Origin: Patescibacteria group bacterium
GTDB taxonomy: Bacteria > Patescibacteriota > Patescibacteriia > JAQUQO01
Length of the DNA: 64,000 nucleotides
Reading direction: 5' to 3'
Assembly: GCA_028716045.1 (NCBI GenBank)
Contig: JAQUQO010000001.1
Location: 725,176 to 789,175 of the forward strand
Under the pieces are notes generated by a model that saw nothing but the letters and a program-made list of their open reading frames with translations, was not told the DNA's origin and did no database searches. A program made the translations under genes and the position numbers. This document shows, piece after piece, positions 17,648 through 58,320 of the stretch (position 1 is the first letter of the stretch; the number at the start of each line of letters is the position of its first letter).

Positions 17648-18613
17648 TTAAACTATTTCCCATTCTCCATCATCTTTCTCTTTTAAACTGCCTTTAATGG
17701 CAAAGCCGGCGGCCTTCTTGTGCCCCCCTCCGCCAAAAAATTTCGCCAAACGCGAAACATCCACGTCGTCATGGGAAGTTCTTAAATTTATCCTTAACTG
17801 TCCGCCTAATTCCTCTTTAATAAACATGGCGGCCTTAACTCCGCTTAAATTATTTAAAAAATTGGAAATTCCGGAAACCGCTTCTTCGTCAATGCTATTT
17901 TCCTCAATATCCCTTCTGGTGACAAAAGTGACGGCTAGCCCGTTAGCGGTAATTTTAAGACGGGATAAAACTTCCCCCCAAACTTTCAGACCGGCGACTG
18001 ATTTATTTTTTAAAATGTGGGGCAAAATTTCACCCAAAATGACTCCGGAGGAAAGGAGCTTCGCCGCCACATTCAGGGAGTCGGCAGTTGTGGCTGGATT
18101 GGAAAAATTGCTGGTATCGGTCAAAATACCGGTTAGCAAGCAAGTGGCCATAGGTCGACTGATGGGAATTCTCCCGACTTCAAATAAATAAAACAAGATT
18201 TCGGTGGTAGAGGAAGCGCCGGGATTAACAATGTTCAAATCGCCAAAATTTTCATTGGTCGGATGGTGGTCTATGTTGACAATCACCGCCTTGGTCTTTA
18301 AATTTTTAATCTGCTCCTCAATGCCGGCATAACGCAAATCACCGCTGTCTAAAATAATAATCAAATCCGCGCCGCCGGCGAATATCTCGATATCATTTTT
18401 AAGTTTGTGAGAAAATGGCAAAAAATTAAATTGAGCCGGCAGAGGGTGCAAACAAAAAGAGGAAAAAACTTTATTGAGGGATTCTAAAAATAAACAGAGG
18501 GCAAAATTAGCCCCCAAAGTATCGCCATCGGGTCTCTGATGAGAAACCACCAAAATCCGCGAGGCGGCGTTTATTAAATTAAAAAATTTTCCCTGTAATG
18601 TCTCGTAATTCAT
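17648..18613 (-). CDS. nrnA: DHH/DHHA1 phosphoesterase (NrnA-like nanoRNase / pAp phosphatase)
   Basis: HQRPDGDTLG, NIDHHPTN and GGGHKKAAGF motifs. Confidence 0.8.
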   Translation of the reverse strand: MNYETLQGKFFNLINAASRILVVSHQRPDGDTLGANFALCLFLESLNKVFSSFCLHPLPAQFNFLPFSHKLKNDIEIFAGGADLIIILDSGDLRYAGIEEQIKNLKTKAVIVNIDHHPTNENFGDLNIVNPGASSTTEILFYLFEVGRIPISRPMATCLLTGILTDTSNFSNPATTADSLNVAAKLLSSGVILGEILPHILKNKSVAGLKVWGEVLSRLKITANGLAVTFVTRRDIEENSIDEEAVSGISNFLNNLSGVKAAMFIKEELGGQLRINLRTSHDDVDVSRLAKFFGGGGHKKAAGFAIKGSLKEKDDGEWEIV

Positions 18614-25253: not shown

Positions 25254-25471
25254 TATTTCACGGTCTTTGAAAACCGTTTTTTAGCTAAAATTAGCAATCT
25301 TTGCGGTTACAACGTCTAAAAGTGGTTAGAGATATCCACGATAAAAAATCTCAAGAGACAATCACTTAGGTGTGGTGGTCTTATTAAGTAAATCCGTTTA
25401 ACTTAATATTCTCTTATATTTTGAGAGTTTTGTAGTCGGGGCTATTGTAAAATAGTTCCGATAAAACTCTT

Positions 25472-26950
<1,479 letters not shown>

Positions 26951-30357: not shown

Positions 30358-30553
30358 GCCAAATCTTAAAAATTCGCGGGTGTCGCCTGCCTGCTCGCCT
30401 CGCTACCGCTATGGCGAAACAGGCCGGCAAGCAGGTATAGTGGTTTATTACCCGCCCGACTGCCTAGCGGCAGCAAGGCGAACGGGTGTCAGTCCCGCTA
30501 CAAGAGCGGGATTTCGTCCCGAGCACTCGGGTCTCAACCTTCCCAACATATTT

Positions 30554-35944: not shown

Positions 35945-36290
35945 AACTCAATAATAAACTTTTATTAAAACCTTCCTCAAATAAAAAACACCGTTAAAAA
36001 CGATGCTTTTATTAAAACTTTTTACCAAACCAGAAAATCTGCGGGCGTTTCTCTCTCTCGTGTTCGGATAGTATTAACGTAATTTTCTTAATTTCGACAC
36101 AAACCATACCCCCCTCGCTACATTATAAAAAATAAAATACACTTTATTTAATCGACTTAACCACTCTAATAATAGTAAAGAATTTCAATCGTGACAAGAC
36201 CGGTTTTTCCACAATTCCCGCTCGCCTCGCTTTGCTTGCGGTAGCGAGGCGAGCGGGCAGGTTTCAATAATTTTTTGTATCTGATTCACC

Positions 36291-47574: not shown

Positions 47575-50500
47575 TTATTTTTTATCGTAAGGATTTCTTT
47601 CTTCTCCCTTGTCTATCCCTTTGATTTTCTGGCCATCCCTTAAAAGCTCAACATCTAAACACAGACCCTTGAGCTCGCGGACCAAAACATTAAAAGATTC
47701 CGGAATGTTGATTTTTCTAATCGGCTCGCCTTTAATAATGGACTCGTAGGCCTTGGAACGTCCCGGCACATCATCTGATTTTATGGTTAAAATTTCCTGC
47801 AAAGTATGGGAAGCGCCATAGGCCTCCAGCGCCCAAACTTCCATTTCACCAAAACGCTGGCCGCCGAATTGCGCCTTGCCGCCCAGCGGCTGCTGGGTAA
47901 TAAGCGAGTAAGGGCCGATGGAACGCTGGTGAATTTTATCTTCAACCATATGGTTCAGCTTGAGCATGTAAATATAACCAACGGTCACCGGATTTTCAAA
48001 AGGATAACCCGTCCGCCCGTCATATAAAGTAACCTGGCCGCTTTCCGGAAATTCCGCTTTGCGCAGCTCTTCCTTTATTTTTTCTTCGGAGATGCCGTCA
48101 AAAACCGGCGTCACTACCTTATAACCAAGTTTATGGGCGGCCATGCCTAAATGCGTTTCTAAAATTTGTCCGATATTCATACGAGAAACCACGCCCAAAG
48201 GACTTAAAATAATATCTACGGGTGTGCCGTCCTCAAGGTGAGGCATATCTTCCACCGGTACAATTTTGGAAATCACGCCCTTATTGCCATGACGGCCGGC
48301 CATCTTATCTCCTCTTTGCAATTTGCGCATATCCGCCACCGCCACCTGAATGGATTTAATAACTCCCGGCGGAAGCTTGTCCCCGTTTTCTTGAGAAAAC
48401 ATTTTGATATCCACCACTTTACCGTGCTCACCATGCTCCAAATACAAAGAACTGTCGCGGACATCGCGGGCTTTCTCCCCGAAAATAGCGCGCAATAATT
48501 TTTCTTCGGCTGATAACTCGGTTTCTCCTTTGGGCGTAATTTTACCGACTAAAATATCTCCGGAAGTAACTTCGGCGCCGATGCGCACAATGCCATTAGC
48601 ATCCAGATTTTTAAATTTCTCTTCGCTGATATTGGGAATATCCGAGGTCACCACCTCGGGTCCGAGTTTGGTATCGCGAACGTCAATCTGATAATTTTCA
48701 ATATGGATTGAGGAAAAGCGGTCTTTCTGGACTAATCTCTCGGAAATAATTATGGCGTCTTCATAGTTGTATCCTTCCCAGGACATAAAGGCCACGAGTA
48801 TATTCTGCCCGAGCGCCAGTTCTCCCTTGTCTATCGCCGGTCCGTCAGATAATAAATCCCCCTTAGATACTTTTTGTCCCTTGACGACCGTCGGATGCTG
48901 GTTAATGCAAGTGGAAGCGTTGGAACGGATAAACTTATTTAAGTAATAATTTTTTATTTCGCCTTTTTTGGTCTGCAGTTGTATCTGACCCGCGCTGGCC
49001 GCCGTAATTTCTCCGCTGTCTTCCGCCACAATGGCGTGTCCGGAATCCTTGGCGGCTCGGCCTTCCACGCCGGTACCCACCAACGGAGCCTCGGGTTTAA
49101 TGCAAGGCACCGCCTGACGTTGCATATTCGTTCCCATCAGAGCTCTGACCGCGTCATCGTGTTCCAAAAAAGGAATAAGAGCAGTGGCAATGCTGACGAT
49201 TTGTTTTGGAGAAACATCCATCAAATCAATTTCCGAAACATGTTCTACCGTCGGCTCGCCGAATTTTCTGACTTCAGCCCTGTCTTTAATAAAATATCCC
49301 TTTTCGTCTATGGTCGTGGTGGCGGCAGTGGAAATAAATCTTTCCCCGCTGAAAGCGTCCAAATAAATAATTTCTTTGGTCACTCGCGGCTTAAGCGGTA
49401 TGGTTGGCAACCCTGTTTCGCTGATTTCTTTGGCTAACTTTTCAGTGATGAGTTCACCGGCTTTGGCTAAAACTTCCCCGCTTTTCGGATTTTTAATATC
49501 TTCCCTTAAAATTTCTCCACTAATTAATTCCGGCTTATTGGCCGGGTCATGGATAATCTTACAAAAGGGAGTTTCAATAAAACCAAATTCGTTGACTCGC
49601 GCATAAGAAGCCAAGTGCCCGACCAAACCGATATTCGGTCCTTCGGGAGTGGCAATCGGGCAAATTCTGCCGTAGTGAGTGCGGTGCACGTCGCGCACGT
49701 CAAAACCGGCCCTTTCGCGGGAAAGTCCCCCCGGACCCATGGCGGAAAGGCGGCGCTTGTGTTCCAGCTCGGACAAAGGGTTGGTCTGATCCATAAACTG
49801 GGAAAGCTGGGAAGACATAAAAAATTCTTTGACCGCGCTGATGAGCGGACGGGCGTTAATTAAACGCGCCGGCGTGAGCGAAGTGACATCCAGCGTGCTC
49901 ATTCTGTCTTTGATAATTCTTTCCATGCGCGCCAAACCAATGCGAAAACGATTCTGCACCAACTCGCCGACCGCGCGGATGCGGCGATTCCCCAAATGGT
50001 CAATATCGTCCGAATCGGATTGCGTGACATTCAATCTGATAACTTCTTTGATAATACTGATGAGGTCTTCTTTTCTTAAAATTCTCGTTTCTTTATTAAT
50101 CGGCAGCTTCTCGTTAAAACGGATATTTAATTTATAACGTCCGACTCGGCCAAAATCATAACGGTCAAAACGGAAAAACATGGAGTAGATAAGCTGTTTG
50201 GCGTTGTCAGCCGTGGCCAAATCCCCCGGCCTGATTCTTTTATAAACTTCAATAAGCCCGTCGGCTTCGTTTTTGGCCGCGTCCTTATCCAGCGTGGCCT
50301 TGATATAACTATGCTCCGGGTCAGTATCCACATCAGTAAAAAGATTAATTATTTCTTCGTTGCTGGACCAGCCGAAAGCGCGCAAAAGAGAAGTTATGGC
50401 CACTTTTCTTTTGCGGTCTATCTTCACCCACAACACGCCGTTTTGGTCTGTCTCTATTTCCAGCCAAGCCCCGCGGTTCGGAATAATTTTTGCTCCGTAA

Positions 50501-50967
50501 TAACGACGGCCCTTGGCAAATTCCGAAGAAAAGAAAACGCCGGCCGAACGGATAATCTGGGAAACGACCGACCGCTCAATGCCGTTAATAATAAAAGTCC
50601 CGCGGCTGGTCATCAGAGGAAAATCACCCAAATATATTTCCTGATTAACTTTTTTGCCGGTGCGATTATTGACGAGTTGCACCTTGACTCTCAACGGCGC
50701 TTCATAGGTGACATTTTTTTCGCGGCTGGTCACTTCGTCAAATTTTGGTTCGTCTAAATAATAATCCACGAAATTCAGTTCCAAATCTCTTTTGGTAAAA
50801 TCGGTGATAGGAGAAACTTCTTCAAAAAGTTCCTTGACTCCTTCTTTAAAAAACCAGCGATAAGAATCTTTTTGAATACAAACGAGGTCAGGGAGGGGCA
50901 TCGCGTCTTTAATATAACTAAAGGCCACTCTGCCGTTTTCAGTTAAAACGTATTTGCCGTCGTTCAT
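47575..50967 (-). CDS. rpoB: DNA-directed RNA polymerase subunit beta
   Basis: Conserved Rif-cluster and catalytic regions. The start is assigned to MNDGKYVL (ATG at 50965-50967) rather than the longer ORF. Confidence 0.95.
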
Positions 50968-51419
50968 ATATATTTTAAAAATTATTTTATTAATTATTAA
51001 AATTTTGGATAACAAAAAATCTCCCCACAAAGGAGTTTCGGGGGCGAGTTTAAACTAAAAGATGGATTGTTTTTCAGCTAAGATAAGCATGAAATTTTTG
51101 CCAAGCCGTTCACAATTTTTAATGGGAAAGTCCCTTTTTGCTTTGAACGGATTCCTTCTGACGAAGGAAAAATGGCTAATATAAAAGAAAAAACGCTCGA
51201 TAGAAATAATTGACTTTTACGTATCTTTTATACTAACAAAGTTTAAATAAACTGTCAAGCAATTCTAAGTTGTCAAGTATTTGATTCTTTTATCTAAAAT
51301 TAGCCAAAATTGACGAAATCTCTGATTTCTATCCACAAGCGCATATTAACCCACTAATAACACTTTATCCACAAAATTATTTTTTTATCTAATATTAGCC
51401 AAAAAATATGGGATGCGTC

Positions 51420-51448
51420 TTGACAAAATCGTTAAAATATGCTATTAT
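51420..51448 (+). promoter_or_regulatory. promoter (TTGACA-17-TATTAT), first of two near-identical tandem promoters
   Basis: GTCTTGACAAAATC...TATTAT. A second copy lies at 51590-51618 (GTCTTGACAAAATC...TATAAT). Confidence 0.45.
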
Positions 51449-51778
51449 AATTTGTTATGGATAAAAATCCGGACGATGTAACGCTTGACCCTGTCTTTAA
51501 AAAACTTGAGCCGGGCAAGATAAGGGGATTTAAAAAGCTTGAATTATATCAAAAAACCCTTATTTTTCAACAAAATTCAGGCAAGGGTCTTGACAAAATC
51601 ATCCGAATGTGGTATAATAAAAGGTTAAAAATAAATGAACTTTAAAACCTATTGGGGAGAGAGTTATCCCGATTTCTCGGGATAAGCCCAATTGTTTTTA
51701 TCGGCTTTATTATAAATTTATACCAGCAGATACCGTTAACCAGTATCTGCTGATATATGATATATATGGAAGCTTAAA

Positions 51779-51837
51779 GGCGGTTGGAAAACTCTCTCAT
51801 TAACCAAAAACGGGACAGTTTTTCAACCGCCTTTTTG
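51779..51837 (+). terminator. hairpin followed by U-tract (terminator or attenuator) inside the long non-coding region
   Basis: GGCGGTTG...CAACCGCC stem followed by TTTTT. Confidence 0.4.
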
Positions 51838-52241
51838 GTTGCCAGAAACAGGAGGGGTAGAAACTTATTTGACGCCCGGCCTAAGGAGGGCCGGCGGCAA
51901 ATAAGCGGCGCTAACTTGGATAATTCCGGTTCTACTGGAAATATCCCAGCCAACCGCCATGCTAAGCGGTGCGCATGCGCACAAAAACTTGGCCTCTATC
52001 CTCCGCTTTCTGACAATCAAAATTGCTTCTGACATGGAGAGTTGGAGGGCACAAAATAATTTAAATAAAAATTAAACAACGCTCGGCCCTATCAATTCTC
52101 CATATCAGAGGCAATTAAGGCAATCGTTCGCGATTGCCCGTCCGTCCGAATCTATGAGGTTTATCTCCTTGTGAGGTAAATTTCATAGATTTAGACGGAC
52201 CTTGATTAACATTTGATTAACAATAGAGGAGGAAAAGGGAA

Positions 52242-52385
52242 ATGATGACGAAAACCCATAATGAGAAAAATTTCGGCGGCGTAAATCATTACAAGAGCTT
52301 CTTTGATTACAATTCGCTGATGAATTTTTTCTTCTTCGTCGTATTGGCCGGCGGTTTAATCACTATGCTCGCCATCGGAAACTAA
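52242..52385 (+). CDS. small hydrophobic peptide (47 aa), possible membrane microprotein
   Basis: Strong RBS AGAGGAGG precedes ATG. C-terminal FFFFVVLAGGLITMLAIG helix. Absent from the ORF track because it is under 60 aa. Confidence 0.35.
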   Translation: MMTKTHNEKNFGGVNHYKSFFDYNSLMNFFFFVVLAGGLITMLAIGN

Positions 52386-52778
52386 AAAAAAATCAAAAAA
52401 TGGGGGAGCCAAAAACTCCCCTCCATAACCTTCGTTAAAAAGTTTTTAGCGAGAGTTATGGAGGGGCGCGACAGTCGCAAGACAATCCGTAAGGATATTT
52501 GTCGCCTTGCCTTTCGCGGCTTGTGTGAGCTTAACCCTCACCCCCTCCAGACAAAAATAACGGCCTTTTTAAAAGCCGACTAAATAAATTTCCTCCTAGA
52601 TACGGGGGCGAACAGAAACATCTGTTTGCCCCCCGTTTCTTACCAAAAGAAAATAGTTGATAAAATTTTTATCAAACTTTTTTTCTTGATAAGAGAGTTG
52701 TTCTTTAAAAACCTTTTTGCCAATCGGTAAAAAGTTTAAAATAAATTTTTAACCTTTTAATTTAAGGAGGAACTAGCA

Positions 52779-53519
52779 ATGGCAAGATGTGAAAGATGCT
52801 TCGAACCAGTTGAATTCCCAAAGGAAAAAATCATTCAAAGGGATTCTAAGACTGGCAAATTTACTAAGGAGTGGAGGTGGAGGTGGTGGGCAAAGCCCAA
52901 AAAACCCGGAAGTCACCATCCGACGAAAATTTTTTGCTTTACTTGCATGCGGGAAGAAGACAAAAAAATCCGCAAGCCGTGGGAGAAAGGAAGACTTTTC
53001 TTCCCCTTGGCAGAATCATTAGAAAGAGATGCCGAGGTGGATAAACCCCTGAAGGAAAAACAGGCGGAAGTAGGCGGAGAACATCCGGAAATCGTCTGCT
53101 CCCATCCAGGGTGCAACCACCACCATGGTCAAATAGTGGAAGCAAAGTTTGGCCCTAAGGTAGTGAGAATCGATGATGTTCTCGCCGCGGACCGCGAAGA
53201 AACTTTTCACGAAGTGATTGAGCGGATTAAAAAAACCGGAAAAATTCCTTACATCTGCTCTTTCCATAAAAAAGAGAGGATTGAGGGAAAAAAGCGGGGA
53301 GAATTCATCAAGTTCTTCATCGCCGAAGAAGTGGAAAACATTCTTCGCAAAATCGGCTTCATCTACCCCAGCGCAAACGCTCCGAGGGAAGAGAATGAGG
53401 CAAAAGAAATTTTCAATAATCCTTTTGCCGAAAAACTTCCGTCGTTGATTGCGGTCCACAAAGAAAAACTCCAAAAACAAAAAGAACACCGGCACCAACA
53501 ACCGGTAGTAAATAACTAA
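52779..53519 (+). CDS. hypothetical Cys/His-rich (zinc-finger-like) protein
   Basis: RBS AAGGAGGAA. CxxC (CERC), CFTC, CSHPGCNHHH and CSFH clusters. Confidence 0.5.
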   Translation: MARCERCFEPVEFPKEKIIQRDSKTGKFTKEWRWRWWAKPKKPGSHHPTKIFCFTCMREEDKKIRKPWEKGRLFFPLAESLERDAEVDKPLKEKQAEVGGEHPEIVCSHPGCNHHHGQIVEAKFGPKVVRIDDVLAADREETFHEVIERIKKTGKIPYICSFHKKERIEGKKRGEFIKFFIAEEVENILRKIGFIYPSANAPREENEAKEIFNNPFAEKLPSLIAVHKEKLQKQKEHRHQQPVVNN

Positions 53520-53725
53520 AATGCCGAAAGGAAAAAGGTAAGAATGAAATTAAACAACTTGTAGGGGAATTACGAATCCTCATTTGCATCCCTACAAAGT
53601 AAAAAAAGAATGGGGTAAGGCAGACAACAATCTGCCTTTCTTTACCAGCCCGTTAACGAGTTAGCGGTCTGATAAAGAAACTCTTTCCAAGATTCATAAT
53701 TTACAATATAATAAATGAGGTGCAG

Positions 53726-53915
53726 CCGGCAGAGGGCTGCGAACACACGAACTTCAATCGGGTTGGAGAAAAAAAGTCTCCCTAAAAGCGGGGACTCTCC
53801 GATCCTTCGGGTGAGGAGTTTCCCGTGATACGGGGAAAATCTCTCTCCTCGACTTTTTGGCTTTAATTCGTAAATTAAAGTTCTAGTGCCGTTCGCAGCC
53901 CTCTGCCGGTTTTTT
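53726..53915 (+). ncRNA. candidate ~190-nt structured RNA closed by a 19-bp perfect helix and a U-tract
   Basis: CCGGCAGAGGGCTGCGAAC (53726-53744) pairs perfectly with GTTCGCAGCCCTCTGCCGG (53891-53909), followed by TTTTTTG. Internal hairpins are present, including a CUUCGG loop and GGAGA-AAAAAAG-TCTCC. No ORF. Confidence 0.4.
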
Positions 53916-53997
53916 GTTTACCCGATTGGCTAATCGGACTGAATATGTTATAATTTCTAAATAACCGAGTTTAAAATTTTATCTTATTTTTACAAAT

Positions 53998-56226
53998 ATG
54001 CGGCGGAAAAATAAAAAAACAAACGGTAATGAACCGTTAATCAAAAGGTGGGATTGGGAACTGGACCCGGAAGCCAAAAGGCAAATTCTGGTAATTATTT
54101 TCTTTGCCGCGGCGGGCTTAAGCATTTTAAGTTTATTTGACATTGCCGGGTCGGCGGGAAAATTTATCACGCATATTTTAGGCATGGCTTTCGGCTGGGC
54201 GGATTTTTTCTTCTCGATAATTTTAATAATTCTCGGTTATGTTTTGCTTTTCCCCAGCCGTTACGATTTGCGCCGGGTTAATTACCTGGGGCTTTTTTTA
54301 TTTATTTTAAGCGTCACGGGGTTAATGCATCTTTCTGTCCCCTTGGAACAGGCGACGGACATAATTCCCGCGGGCAAAGGCGGCGGATATATCGGATTAT
54401 TTTCCAGCTACCCGCTGCAAAAAATTATGGGATTTTGGGCTACGCTCATTGTTCTCGCGGCGTTGCTGGTTATTTCTTTTCTCACGATGTTTAATACCAC
54501 CCTTTCCCGCATTTTGTCTCCCGGCGCGCTAATCGGGTCAAAATTAAAATCAATTCCGGACCGATTTAGAAGTGACGAAGAAGCCGAAGAGGAAATAGAG
54601 GAAGAAAGGGACGAAGAGATTGACGAAAAGACGGAAAGAGAAAAATTTTCTAAAAAACCGCTCTGGCCGAATGCCTCCCGGCCCCTGCTGGAACCGCAAC
54701 CCCCGGCCAAAATCAGAAAAAAAATTGACCTGCCCATAGACCTGCTTGATAACAAACCCAGCAAACCGACTTCCGGCGATATTGAAGTTGGCAAAATTCT
54801 TATCCAAAAAACTTTGGAAAATTTCGGCATACCGGTGGAAATGGGCGGCGTCAGCGTCGGGCCGACGATAACCCAATATACTCTCAAGCCGTCGGAGGGA
54901 ATCAAACTTTCGCGCATCACCACTCTACATAATGATTTGGCCTTGGCTTTGGCCGCGCATCCCATTCGCATTGAGGCGCCGATACCGGGTAAATCGCTGG
55001 TGGGCATTGAAGTGCCAAACCAAAAAGTCGCTATCGTTAATTTGCGGGAAAATTTGGAATCGGCCGAATTTAAAAAACGCGCCTCTAATTTAACAATCAT
55101 TCTCGGCAAGGATGTGGCGGGGAAGACATGGATAGCGGATATCGGCAGAATGCCGCACCTGCTGGTCGCCGGCGCGACCGGTTCCGGCAAAAGTGTCTGC
55201 CTCAACACCATCATTATCAGTTTACTCTATCAAAACGGACCGGAAGATTTAAAATTTATTTTAGTGGACCCCAAGAGAGTGGAACTGCCGGTTTATAACG
55301 GCATTCCCCATCTGCTGACGCCGGTAATTACCGACGTCACTAAAACGGTCAACGCTTTGAGATGGGCGATTCTGGAAATGGACCGCCGGCTGGAACTGCT
55401 TTCTAAAACTCAAAAAAGAAATATTGATTTTTATAATACCGCTCATCCGTCAGAAAAACTTCCTTACATTTTAATAGTCATTGATGAGCTGGCTGACCTG
55501 ATGGTGTCCGCCGGCCACGAAGTTGAGGGCGCCATTGTCCGGCTGGCGCAAATGGCCAGAGCAGTCGGCATTCATTTAATACTCGCCACCCAGCGGCCGT
55601 CGGTGGACATTATTACCGGACTGATCAAAGCTAACATCCCCGCGCGCATCGCTTTCAGCGTCGCCTCGCTGGTTGATTCCCGGACGATTTTGGACACTTC
55701 CGGCGCGGAAAAACTTTTAGGCAGAGGGGACATGCTTTACACTTCAGCTGAACTCACTTTATCCAAAAGAATCCAGGGGGCTTTTGTTTCCGATGAAGAA
55801 ATAAAAAGAGTCATTGATTTCTTAAAGCGGGACAGCGACGGTCCGGATTATAATTCTGAAATTATTGCCAAACCAAAAATCACCACCACCGCTTTTGATT
55901 TTTCTCCGGATGGGGACGACGGCGACGAACTCTTAGGCGAAGCCAAAGAAGTCATTTCACAGGCGGGCAAGGCCTCGGCCTCTTTGCTCCAGCGCCGGCT
56001 GAAAGTCGGCTATGCGCGGGCGGCGAGAATTTTGGACTTGCTGGAAGAACAAGGATTTATCGGGCCGGCTGACGGAGCTAAACCACGGGAAATCTTGATA
56101 AACGAAAGCTCTGATGCTAATATGGGTGAAACCGAAGAAGAGGATAGCGGCGAGGGTGAATATCCTGAGGAAAATGGGGATGGCGAAGAAATTGAAGACG
56201 AAGAAGAAACCGAAGAAAAAGAATAA
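53998..56226 (+). CDS. ftsK: DNA translocase FtsK/SpoIIIE
   Basis: N-terminal TM helices. Walker A GATGSGKSV, Walker B IVIDELADL, C-terminal gamma (winged-helix) region. Acidic tail. Confidence 0.9.
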   Translation: MRRKNKKTNGNEPLIKRWDWELDPEAKRQILVIIFFAAAGLSILSLFDIAGSAGKFITHILGMAFGWADFFFSIILIILGYVLLFPSRYDLRRVNYLGLFLFILSVTGLMHLSVPLEQATDIIPAGKGGGYIGLFSSYPLQKIMGFWATLIVLAALLVISFLTMFNTTLSRILSPGALIGSKLKSIPDRFRSDEEAEEEIEEERDEEIDEKTEREKFSKKPLWPNASRPLLEPQPPAKIRKKIDLPIDLLDNKPSKPTSGDIEVGKILIQKTLENFGIPVEMGGVSVGPTITQYTLKPSEGIKLSRITTLHNDLALALAAHPIRIEAPIPGKSLVGIEVPNQKVAIVNLRENLESAEFKKRASNLTIILGKDVAGKTWIADIGRMPHLLVAGATGSGKSVCLNTIIISLLYQNGPEDLKFILVDPKRVELPVYNGIPHLLTPVITDVTKTVNALRWAILEMDRRLELLSKTQKRNIDFYNTAHPSEKLPYILIVIDELADLMVSAGHEVEGAIVRLAQMARAVGIHLILATQRPSVDIITGLIKANIPARIAFSVASLVDSRTILDTSGAEKLLGRGDMLYTSAELTLSKRIQGAFVSDEEIKRVIDFLKRDSDGPDYNSEIIAKPKITTTAFDFSPDGDDGDELLGEAKEVISQAGKASASLLQRRLKVGYARAARILDLLEEQGFIGPADGAKPREILINESSDANMGETEEEDSGEGEYPEENGDGEEIEDEEETEEKE

Positions 56227-56231
56227 CTTCT

Positions 56232-56915
56232 ATGCTTTTCAGACAACGGCCAATCCACGACCAAAAACAGCTGGGAGAAAAACTGCTGGAACAACGGAAA
56301 CGGCTTAACCTTCAACTGGAAAAAATTTCCGCAAAAATAAACATCCCCTTAAAATATCTGCTGGCGCTGGAAAACGGCGACTATAAAAATCTGCCGGCCA
56401 ATGTTTACAGTAAAAATTTTTTAAAAAGATATCTGGAAGAATTAAAACTTCCGGCCGAACCTCTCACCAGACAATTTTTAGAAGAAAGGAGCAACTACGA
56501 GGCCCTGCATGAAAGGAATAAAAAAGAGCCGTTCGTGGCCAAAGTTTCGGAAAAAAATTTAATAAACACTCCCCGAATTATCCGGATTACTTTCGTTCTG
56601 ATTATTGTCGGACTGCTCATCGGTTATCTGGGGCTGGAAATCAAAGACATTATTTCCCCGCCCCGACTTGCCATATTTGAACCGCCGGAAAATCTCACTC
56701 TTAACACTACCCTGATTACCGTCAGGGGGCAGACGGAACCGGAGGCCAAAATCACCATCAATGAGCAGGAAGTTTTAGCCGACCCGACCGGCAATTTTTT
56801 CAAAGAACTGCAACTCCAAACCGGAATAAATACCATAAAAATAACTGCCAAGAAAAAACATAGCCGAGAAAATTTTATCTATAGAAATATCTTCGTAGAA
56901 GAAATTCCTAAATAA
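56232..56915 (+). CDS. RodZ-like HTH membrane protein
   Basis: The [34 protein letters not shown] segment matches the RodZ N-terminal HTH. A TM helix follows. Confidence 0.55.
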
Positions 56916-56928
56916 TCAACTAATAAAT

Positions 56929-58247: not shown

Positions 58248-58286
58248 CTCTATTCTTAATGCTCGTCTGCCTAAATCCCACATTGG

Positions 58287-58320
58287 TTCAATCTTAAAGA
58301 TTGAACCAACTATTAGCGGT
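58287..58320. repeat. 34-bp palindromic repeat (copy 1) GTTGGTTCAATCTTAAAGATTGAACCAACTATTA
   Basis: Perfect 13-bp inverted arms (TTGGTTCAATCTT / AAGATTGAACCAA). A near-identical copy lies at 59167-59200. Confidence 0.75.

Follow-up and report, generated by a model that had tools for sequence, protein, structure and literature searches.

A rod-shaped small RNA with a conserved CU-rich unpaired motif beside ftsK: a candidate RNA family of Patescibacteria

The window analysed here, a 64-kb stretch of DNA from a Patescibacteria MAG (64,000 nucleotides, to which all positions without an L number refer), carries a short distance upstream of ftsK an element that we regard with high confidence as a real, conserved RNA gene. 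It is the first to be noticed of an RNA family of Patescibacteria (CPR bacteria) that has apparently not been described before, and homologues were found on at least 14 other Patescibacteria contigs. The reading that best accommodates the sequence comparisons is an independently transcribed, stable and rod-shaped small RNA of approximately 190 nt that lies beside ftsK and rodZ-like (often rpoB) genes.

The RNA gene and its surroundings in the window

The ends of the element are formed by CCGGCAGAGGGCTGCGAAC at 53726-53744 and its exact reverse complement at 53891-53909 (100% complementary, 146 nt between), with TTTTTT(G) at 53910-53916 directly 3' of the helix, which agrees with the perfect 19-bp closing helix and T-run described in an earlier note on this DNA. 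This closing helix (P1) is lengthened by the pairs G53725-U53910 and A53724-U53911 to 20-21 bp with A-U/G-U ends, and the 19-mer arm has no second copy in the 64-kb window (0.01 matches expected by chance). The minimum free energy of the 196-nt stretch was -99.2 kcal/mol in comparison to -55.7 +/- 4.5 kcal/mol for dinucleotide shuffles (z = -9.66), and 0 of 200 shuffles folded as well. The opposite strand has nearly equal folding stability, so that the strand had to be assigned by other evidence. A covariance model of the long forms (R1, below) scored 204 bits on the + strand and 48 bits on the - strand. Additionally, P1 holds about 27 G-U pairs by our own count in a pair table of 12 members; as these become A-C mismatches on the other strand, they identify + as the strand of the RNA. 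The parts of the gene and its flanking signals are listed below.

53617..53644, + strand: terminator-like hairpin AAGGCAGA-CAACAA-TCTGCCTT with a T-rich tail, ending the upstream 246-aa gene (read by eye)
53684..53712, + strand: promoter of the RNA, TTTCCA-17-TATAAT (scan, 10/12 match)
53724..53915, + strand: gene of the small RNA (about 190 nt), its terminal U-run included (minimum free energy, z, R1 at 204 bits, R2 at 25.8 bits with E 0.0035)
53724..53744, + strand: P1 5' strand, holding the family core GCUGCGAA at 53736-53743 (arm match, pair table)
53746..53768, + strand: 5' arm of the rod (helices P2/P3), in which CACGAACUU.. pairs with ..AAGUUCUAGUG (alignment of relatives)
53771..53778, + strand: 5' strand of helix Pc, AAAAAGUC (a helix of differing sequence stands at the same place in every member)
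53779..53836, + strand: inner hairpin domain of 58 nt with a UUCG-capped hairpin and a CCCG/CGGG element (fold; alignment, helices 4-5)
53837..53850, + strand: conserved unpaired motif AAAUCUCUCUCCUC, anti-Shine-Dalgarno-like, a 3' bulge just before the Pc 3' strand (14 members)
53851..53858, + strand: Pc 3' strand, GACUUUUU, starting 0 nt after the CU motif
53859..53890, + strand: 3' arm of the rod, partners of P2/P3 (alignment of relatives)
53891..53911, + strand: P1 3' strand, GUUCGCAGCCCUCUGCCGGUU, followed by the U-run at 53910-53915 (arm match, pair table)
53926..53954, + strand: separate ftsK promoter TTGGCT-17-TG-TATAAT, outside the RNA and given as context (scan; same layout in L082 and L083)

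Two of the interior hairpins that the earlier note had read, C-UUCG-G and CCCG..CGGG, are present in the fold. The third, GGAGA at 53765-53769 with TCTCC at 53777-53781, is pairable but competes with the family-conserved AAAAAGUC/GACUUUUU helix. Its statement that the stretch holds no ORF is essentially right: only ORFs of 37 aa (53715-53828, +) and 34 aa (53642-53746, -) overlap the element, both short and unconserved, and the ATG of the former is missing from the relatives. The terminator it had placed upstream can be seen by eye as a hairpin at 53617-53638 with a T-rich tail, which separates the 246-aa gene from the RNA but went unflagged by a consensus scan, and the ftsK promoter it had placed downstream was found by scanning. 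Its overall proposal of a structured non-coding RNA gene of about 190 nt between these two signals therefore holds, now with a promoter and a terminator of its own.

Transcription of the RNA is expected to start at approximately 53719-53722. In L082 and L083 a promoter matching the consensus at 12/12 positions (TTGACA-16/17-TATAAT) occupies the same position, and the distance from the end of this sigma-70-type promoter to the RNA is 11-13 nt in these two loci and the window. Boxes of the form TTGAC(A/G)-17-TAnnnT were read by eye upstream of the RNAs of L025, L034, L071, L013, L136 and L175. Canonical terminators follow the RNA in L083, L136, L025, L034 and L069, while the gene ends with P1 and a U-run in the window, L082 and L178; in the window the P1 3' strand with its U-run probably doubles as the terminator. 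As judged from these signals, promoter, RNA and terminator form one predicted unit, and most members have their own sigma-70-type promoter and terminator.

The gene order in the window is rpoB (47575-51030, -), 1.7 kb without long ORFs, the 246-aa gene (52779-53519, +), the element, ftsK (53998-56226), a rodZ-like HTH_25 gene and recA. ftsK is read in the same direction as the RNA, which precedes it by 87 nt. The best relatives of this FtsK come from Falkow-, Uhr-, Buchanan- and Kuenenbacteria-type MAGs. The 246-aa protein has no Pfam domains and only one distant homologue in 5.8 billion proteins; the gene is common only to L082 and L178, and was rejected as a partner of the RNA for being confined to the nearest relatives. 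The ORF-poor stretch between rpoB and this gene (51030-52779) may hold further small RNAs or peptides. It includes two near-identical strong promoters (51402-51465 and 51572-51635; TTGACA..TATAAT), an 82-aa ORF at 51784-52032 that is conserved in L082 and L178, a 24-nt inverted repeat at 52418-52466 and a GGGGAGAGAG tract at 51654-51665 that is partly complementary to the CU motif. Elsewhere in the window several tRNA genes come after a 16S rRNA gene at 25470-26950 (stretch to 30624); no 23S or 5S rRNA was found anywhere in the 64 kb, and the rRNA genes appear to be unlinked. Two further repeats were observed. A 39-nt palindromic sequence with a TTGGTTCAATCTTAAAGATTGAACCAAC core is present in two copies (58277-58315 and 59163-59201; 95% identical, 886 nt apart), and the arms of a 24-nt GC-rich inverted repeat, CCTGCCTGCTCGCCTCGCTACCGC, at 30386-30409 and 36238-36261 (96% complementary, 5.8 kb apart) could mark the ends of an inserted element.

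Relatives and common anatomy

The two contigs with the closest FtsK (72% and 66% identity) carry clear homologues of the RNA at the same place (L082, 2473-2662; L083, 3688-3883). RNAalifold on these sequences and the window gave 70 pairs, 14 of them with compensatory changes, and the sequence of the closing helix was altered with its pairing kept. Conservation of that helix, which the earlier note had made decisive for its candidate, is thus observed, and the helix covaries in relatives. Searching with the models and with the motif yielded further members, as did one pattern scan of metagenome data in which only 5 of 99 matches were real, while single-sequence nhmmer and blastn searches of 80 GTDB ftsK loci returned nothing. 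Model R1 represents the long forms and R2 was built solely from short-form relatives. R1 finds L106, L175, L196, L021 and L071, and R2 finds the window RNA (25.8 bits, E 0.0035), L136 and L106, so that each model detects members of the other's subgroup and the long and short forms recognise each other. The members beyond the window, L082 and L083 were grouped as follows.

Long and intermediate forms: L178, L106, L136, L175 (= L193), L196
Short forms, 137-165 nt: L013, L025, L034, L069, L071
Minimal form, 109 nt: L021
More divergent candidates: L030, L039, L043 (about 2744-2908, - strand), perhaps L060

MAFFT failed to align long and short forms jointly, and we therefore used two alignments together with hand-anchored pair tables. 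Across four long forms, a set of only four sequences whose alignment was fitted to the model, 93.9% of cells were paired and 13 pairs showed compensatory (double) change; none of 500 shuffles did as well, and sliding the strands left no more than 52% of cells paired. Within this alignment helices 2-3 had 90-94% of cells paired and 4 pairs with compensatory change. The five short forms gave 91.5% paired cells and 17 compensatory pairs (0 of 500 shuffles as good; at most 40% when slid). For P1, tabulated pair by pair in 12 members, 87% of cells are paired; sliding lowers this to 33-43%, and a column shows up to 5 pair types.

A detectable copy was present in about 10 of the 80 GTDB species-level ftsK loci, and none was found upstream of ftsK in L195 and L199, which are fairly close relatives. 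BLAST against phage and plasmid collections showed no similarity to the RNA. A 12-nt match at window position 18434, within a coding gene, and a match in L017 were dismissed as chance. A pattern scan of viral contigs gave 12 matches, of which 11 repeat a single sequence almost identically and the remaining one (L087) is unrelated; these too were read as chance because none had the closing helix.

Our searches also brought up structures of doubtful kinship. L043 7495-7650 (-), between recA and efp, is a 156-nt almost perfect rod hairpin (-88.7 kcal/mol) with AAAAAAUCUCUC in an internal loop; the long-form model matches it weakly (25 bits), its membership is doubtful, and the P1-anchored candidate at about 2744-2908 of the same contig, divergent from ftsK, is the better one. 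Upstream of ftsK in L197 (3270-3400; = L198) lies a rod RNA in which AUCUCUCUCCUC is placed 5' of the inner hairpin and is preceded by AAGGAGA, with which it could pair. This rod could be a permuted relative or an independent invention, and kinship is again doubtful. In L021, a few hundred nt upstream of the ftsK-linked RNA, a DUF805b RNA scored 49.7 bits, above the Rfam gathering threshold, and a type III hammerhead candidate stayed below its own (39.1 vs 48.5 bits); the two occupy 1879-1913 and 2169-2223.

The members share one plan: a long closing rod, the inner helix Pc, an optional hairpin domain and an unpaired bulge of 11-15 nt, AAAWCUCUCUCCUY. The outer part of P1 is freely variable and its inner part nearly invariant, GCUGCGRA/UYCGCAGC. 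Its CUGCG/CGCAG core is counted as invariant in 11 of 12 tabulated members, with CCGCA/UGCGG in L013, and L196 carries a compensatory GGCUGUG/CACAGCC (CUGUG/CACAG). One or two further helices, among them GCACG/CGUGGC in many members, prolong the rod (45-55 bp). Pc always stands at the same place, with sequences that are unrelated among members (GACUUUUU, GGACUU, AUGCUC, CCAUGG, CCAUGA, CCGUGG and others), and the hairpin domain enclosed by it measures 19-60 nt and is absent in L021.

The unpaired tract, (A/G)A(A/U/C)-CUCUCUCCU(C/U), abuts the Pc 3' strand with a gap of 0 nt in all 12 tabulated members. As the motif [C/U]UCUCUCCU[C/U] it was found in 14 members, with CUCUCUCCUY in 13 and UUCUCUCCUC in L013. 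The bulge lies on the 3' side only, with 0-3 nt on the opposite strand, and in L021 the CU motif forms the terminal loop; in the divergent candidates L030, L039 and L043 the bulge is CU-rich and not identical. According to partition-function folding, the 10 nt of the motif are unpaired with a probability of 0.82-1.0 in 12 of 14 members, where they are usually the most accessible stretch of the molecule, and with one of 0.40 in the window RNA and 0.56 in L178. In the long forms a GAGGAG can pair with CUCCUC and a second CUCUCC can sequester this GAGGAG. The window RNA has both within its inner hairpin domain (CUCUCC at 53794-53799, GAGGAG at 53813-53818), which would permit alternative masking of the CU motif, and its folding energies of -101.3 kcal/mol unconstrained and -97.0 kcal/mol with the motif forced open are about 4 kcal/mol apart. 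Masking by the internal GAGGAG and release by the internal CUCUCC copy may thus make the accessibility of the motif switchable.

Known families and possible modes of action

No Rfam 15 family matched the element at the gathering threshold in a scan of the whole window. At E<=10 the 501 nt around it gave only junk miRNA-type matches, with no 6S, SRP, Y RNA or 6C, and seven other members gave no family match. The families that the earlier note had named, 6S and SRP, were accordingly not recovered. Bacterial SRP RNA (RF00169/RF01854), whose domain IV bears a GNAR tetraloop and conserved symmetric and asymmetric loops, had no match in the window or in the seven members; UUCG, GUAA and others were seen as apical loops, and reading the sequences showed no motif of the ..GGAAGCAGC.. 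type. Literature searches on RNAs of CPR/Patescibacteria and on the motif string brought up neither this RNA nor any regulatory small RNA of these bacteria.

How the RNA acts can be approached through its conserved unpaired element. The motif contains CUCCU, the anti-Shine-Dalgarno (SD) core, and the 16S 3' end of the organism is canonical (GGAUCACCUCCUUUCU). Our leading proposal, put forward tentatively and by analogy, is that of a trans-acting small RNA working through the exposed anti-SD-like CU motif. The motif would pair with purine-rich, SD-type sites (GGAG/GAGG) of a subset of mRNAs, and this pairing would repress or modulate translation without Hfq, as with 6C, RsaE, CcsR and Yfr1. Stability, and probably a handle for a protein, would come from the long rod with its conserved helix, and in the long-form subgroup, window included, the internal GAGGAG would mask the motif and the CUCUCC copy would free it. 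An SD-like 4-mer stands upstream of only 12 of the 44 crudely called genes of the window, so that an anti-SD-like RNA would address a defined mRNA subset. The leaders of ftsK, recA, rpoB and many others are AU-rich and lack an SD (e.g. 53976-53997, 56907-56928). In L021 a TATAAT box stands 7 nt before the start of ftsK, as would be expected for a leaderless mRNA. Predicted duplexes between the motif and SD sites of the window genes range from -8 to -12.5 kcal/mol over these 64 kb of genome, similar to the real anti-SD.

Several small RNAs offer precedents for such pairing. Yfr1 of cyanobacteria (ACUCCUCACAC), RsaE/RoxS of Firmicutes and the CcsR or 'cuckoo' RNAs of alpha-proteobacteria (CCUCCUCCC) are phylum-wide and carry an ultraconserved unpaired C/U-rich anti-SD-like sequence on or between stable stems, and they are much smaller and lack a long closing rod. 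The family described here has the same kind of exposed C/U element on stable stems in its 14 motif-bearing members. Rfam detected no sequence or covariance-model homology to 6C, RsaE, CcsR or Yfr1. The 6C RNA of Actinobacteria (RF01066) is about 60-80 nt long and consists of two short hairpins with C-runs in their terminal loops. It resembles our family in being a lineage-wide small RNA and an independent unit, and its function lies in unpaired C-rich sequence as proposed for ours, whereas here a single CU-rich 3' bulge sits on a 45-55-bp rod with a sequence-conserved helix, without an Rfam match and with a predicted pairing to mRNAs. The C-rich loops of 6C bind G-rich 5' UTRs without a chaperone, Hfq or ProQ (PMC6486639).

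Other results weigh against base pairing. The motif is predicted to be half masked in the window RNA (unpaired probability 0.40), and no conserved complementarity to it was found in the starts of ftsK, the rodZ-like gene, recA and rpoB. Extended complements of the motif in the window or in 16S did not exceed chance (7 matches vs 3.05 expected). Base-pairing small RNAs do not usually have a 45-55-bp rod with a helix of conserved sequence, a feature at least as suggestive of a protein partner, and the variation of the CU-rich motif in L030, L039 and L043 fits generic SD or protein recognition better than one target.

Alternatively, the RNA may be a ribonucleoprotein scaffold or protein sponge, a reading that we consider somewhat doubtful. 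One protein would read the helix GCUGCGRA/UYCGCAGC and the same or another (KH-, S1-, CSD- or RRM-type) the CU tract, perhaps as a mimic of the 16S 3' end, with the logic of Y RNA/Ro or of CsrB sequestration. This reading is favoured by a helix whose sequence is kept where structure alone would permit drift (CUGCG/CGCAG in 11/12 tabulated members), by the rod with an asymmetric pyrimidine-rich loop next to the Pc 3' strand, by a motif that stays CU-rich yet varies in distant candidates, by the likeness to the 16S 3' end GGAUCACCUCCUU (a hairpin, then AUC..CUCC) and by the failure to find an mRNA target in neighbouring genes. The apparent 16S resemblance is short, however, and no conserved candidate partner gene adjoins the RNA, since only ftsK, rodZ-like, recA and rpoB are shared. 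In Y RNAs the two ends pair into a stem with a conserved protein-binding sequence, the internal loop has a pyrimidine-rich single strand on its 3' side, and the RNA carries a U-run at its 3' end. By analogy our family may be likened to them in its end-closed stem with conserved sequence, its 3'-side pyrimidine tract and its U-run. It differs in that P1 is an unbulged helix without the bulged C of a Ro site, in the lack of a tRNA-like module and in the absence of rsr (TROVE) among the neighbours examined (ftsK, rodZ-like, recA, rpoB and hypotheticals without Pfam domains); neither the window nor the seven members gave a covariance-model match to Y RNA (RF00019) or YrlA.

In a more specific and unlikely form of this idea, the RNA would be the core of a Patescibacteria-specific ribonucleoprotein that imitates the 16S 3' end (a hairpin, then an AUC..CUCCU tail), and would act as a global competitor for SD-led mRNAs or titrate a factor that reads the 16S tail (Era, a maturation RNase or a toxin RNase). 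If this were true, it would tie the translation of a subset of genes to growth or division, with the long forms switchable through the GAGGAG/CUCUCC mask.

It is highly improbable that the RNA is a divergent 6S-type RNA, which would bind the sigma-70-type RNA polymerase holoenzyme as a mimic of an open promoter and template product RNA. The earlier note had suggested this kinship, and there is likeness in size (140-195 nt), in the rod closed by both ends, in an unpaired mid-rod region and in strong, constitutive-type promoters; rpoB adjoins the RNA in L136 and L175 and lies 2.7 kb away in the window. The poor sequence conservation of 6S RNA also favours this reading. The suggestion is nevertheless not supported by the fold, as 6S has a two-sided central bubble with long flanking helices whereas the family here has its bulge of 11-15 nt on the 3' strand facing 0-3 nt, with a distal hairpin of only 6-7 bp in short forms and none in L021. 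The one-sided bulge and the terminal-loop motif of L021 are incompatible with a two-sided 6S bubble. An invariant 10-nt sequence is not known as a trait of 6S, and the 6S model (RF00013) had no match at the gathering threshold, at E<=10 or in the seven members.

Genomic setting and significance

ftsK is adjacent to the RNA in 11 of the 13 loci analysed; 9 of these 13, window included, were reached through ftsK. Among four independent metagenome matches, two adjoin ftsK (L175, L178) and two lie directly upstream of rpoB (L136, L175). No neighbour families other than ftsK, rodZ-like, recA and rpoB were shared in the loci analysed. The position upstream of ftsK that the earlier note had given holds for the window, but elsewhere in the family the RNA is also convergent or divergent. 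It stands upstream of ftsK in the same orientation in the window, L082, L083, L178, L021, L196, L030 and L039, convergent and 15-57 nt past the rodZ-like gene in L013, L025, L034, L069 and L071, and divergent from ftsK in L175 and L043. These changes of orientation indicate that the linkage of the RNA to ftsK is positional or syntenic and not co-transcriptional. No GC-skew switch was evident near the locus, and a KOPS/SRS-like role of the complement GAGGAGAGAG in orienting FtsK was discarded, as it showed no skewed over-representation.

There is accordingly very little chance that the element is a cis-acting leader or attenuator of ftsK, or a mere elaborate terminator of the upstream gene. The co-oriented loci with the RNA upstream of ftsK (87 nt in the window) would suit a leader, and P1 with U6 is terminator-like. 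The leader reading is largely refuted by the changing orientation to the ftsK-rodZ-like cluster (or rpoB), with five species in the convergent arrangement and the RNA before rpoB in L136 and L175. A separate ftsK promoter, located between the RNA and that gene, also speaks against it, and a terminator reading is opposed by the upstream gene's own terminator and the RNA's own promoter. That we are dealing with a palindrome arisen by chance, or with a repeat or mobile element that has MITE-like terminal inverted repeats, in either case without RNA function, which the perfect 19-bp terminal inverted repeat might suggest, can practically be dismissed, as the element is single-copy in the 64 kb and present once per locus at a syntenic place, has no match in phage or plasmid collections, keeps its RNA fold on one strand through G-U pairs and compensatory changes, and keeps its syntenic location in genomes whose FtsK shares no more than 50-74% identity with that of the window.

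In summary, Patescibacteria (CPR) account for much of bacterial diversity and have tiny genomes and few known regulators. The near-invariant, exposed anti-SD-like element, the sequence-conserved stem and the stable position near ftsK, rodZ and rpoB make this RNA a testable candidate for a lineage-wide post-transcriptional regulator or ribonucleoprotein. A covariance model built from the family could enter RNA family databases and be used to annotate MAGs.
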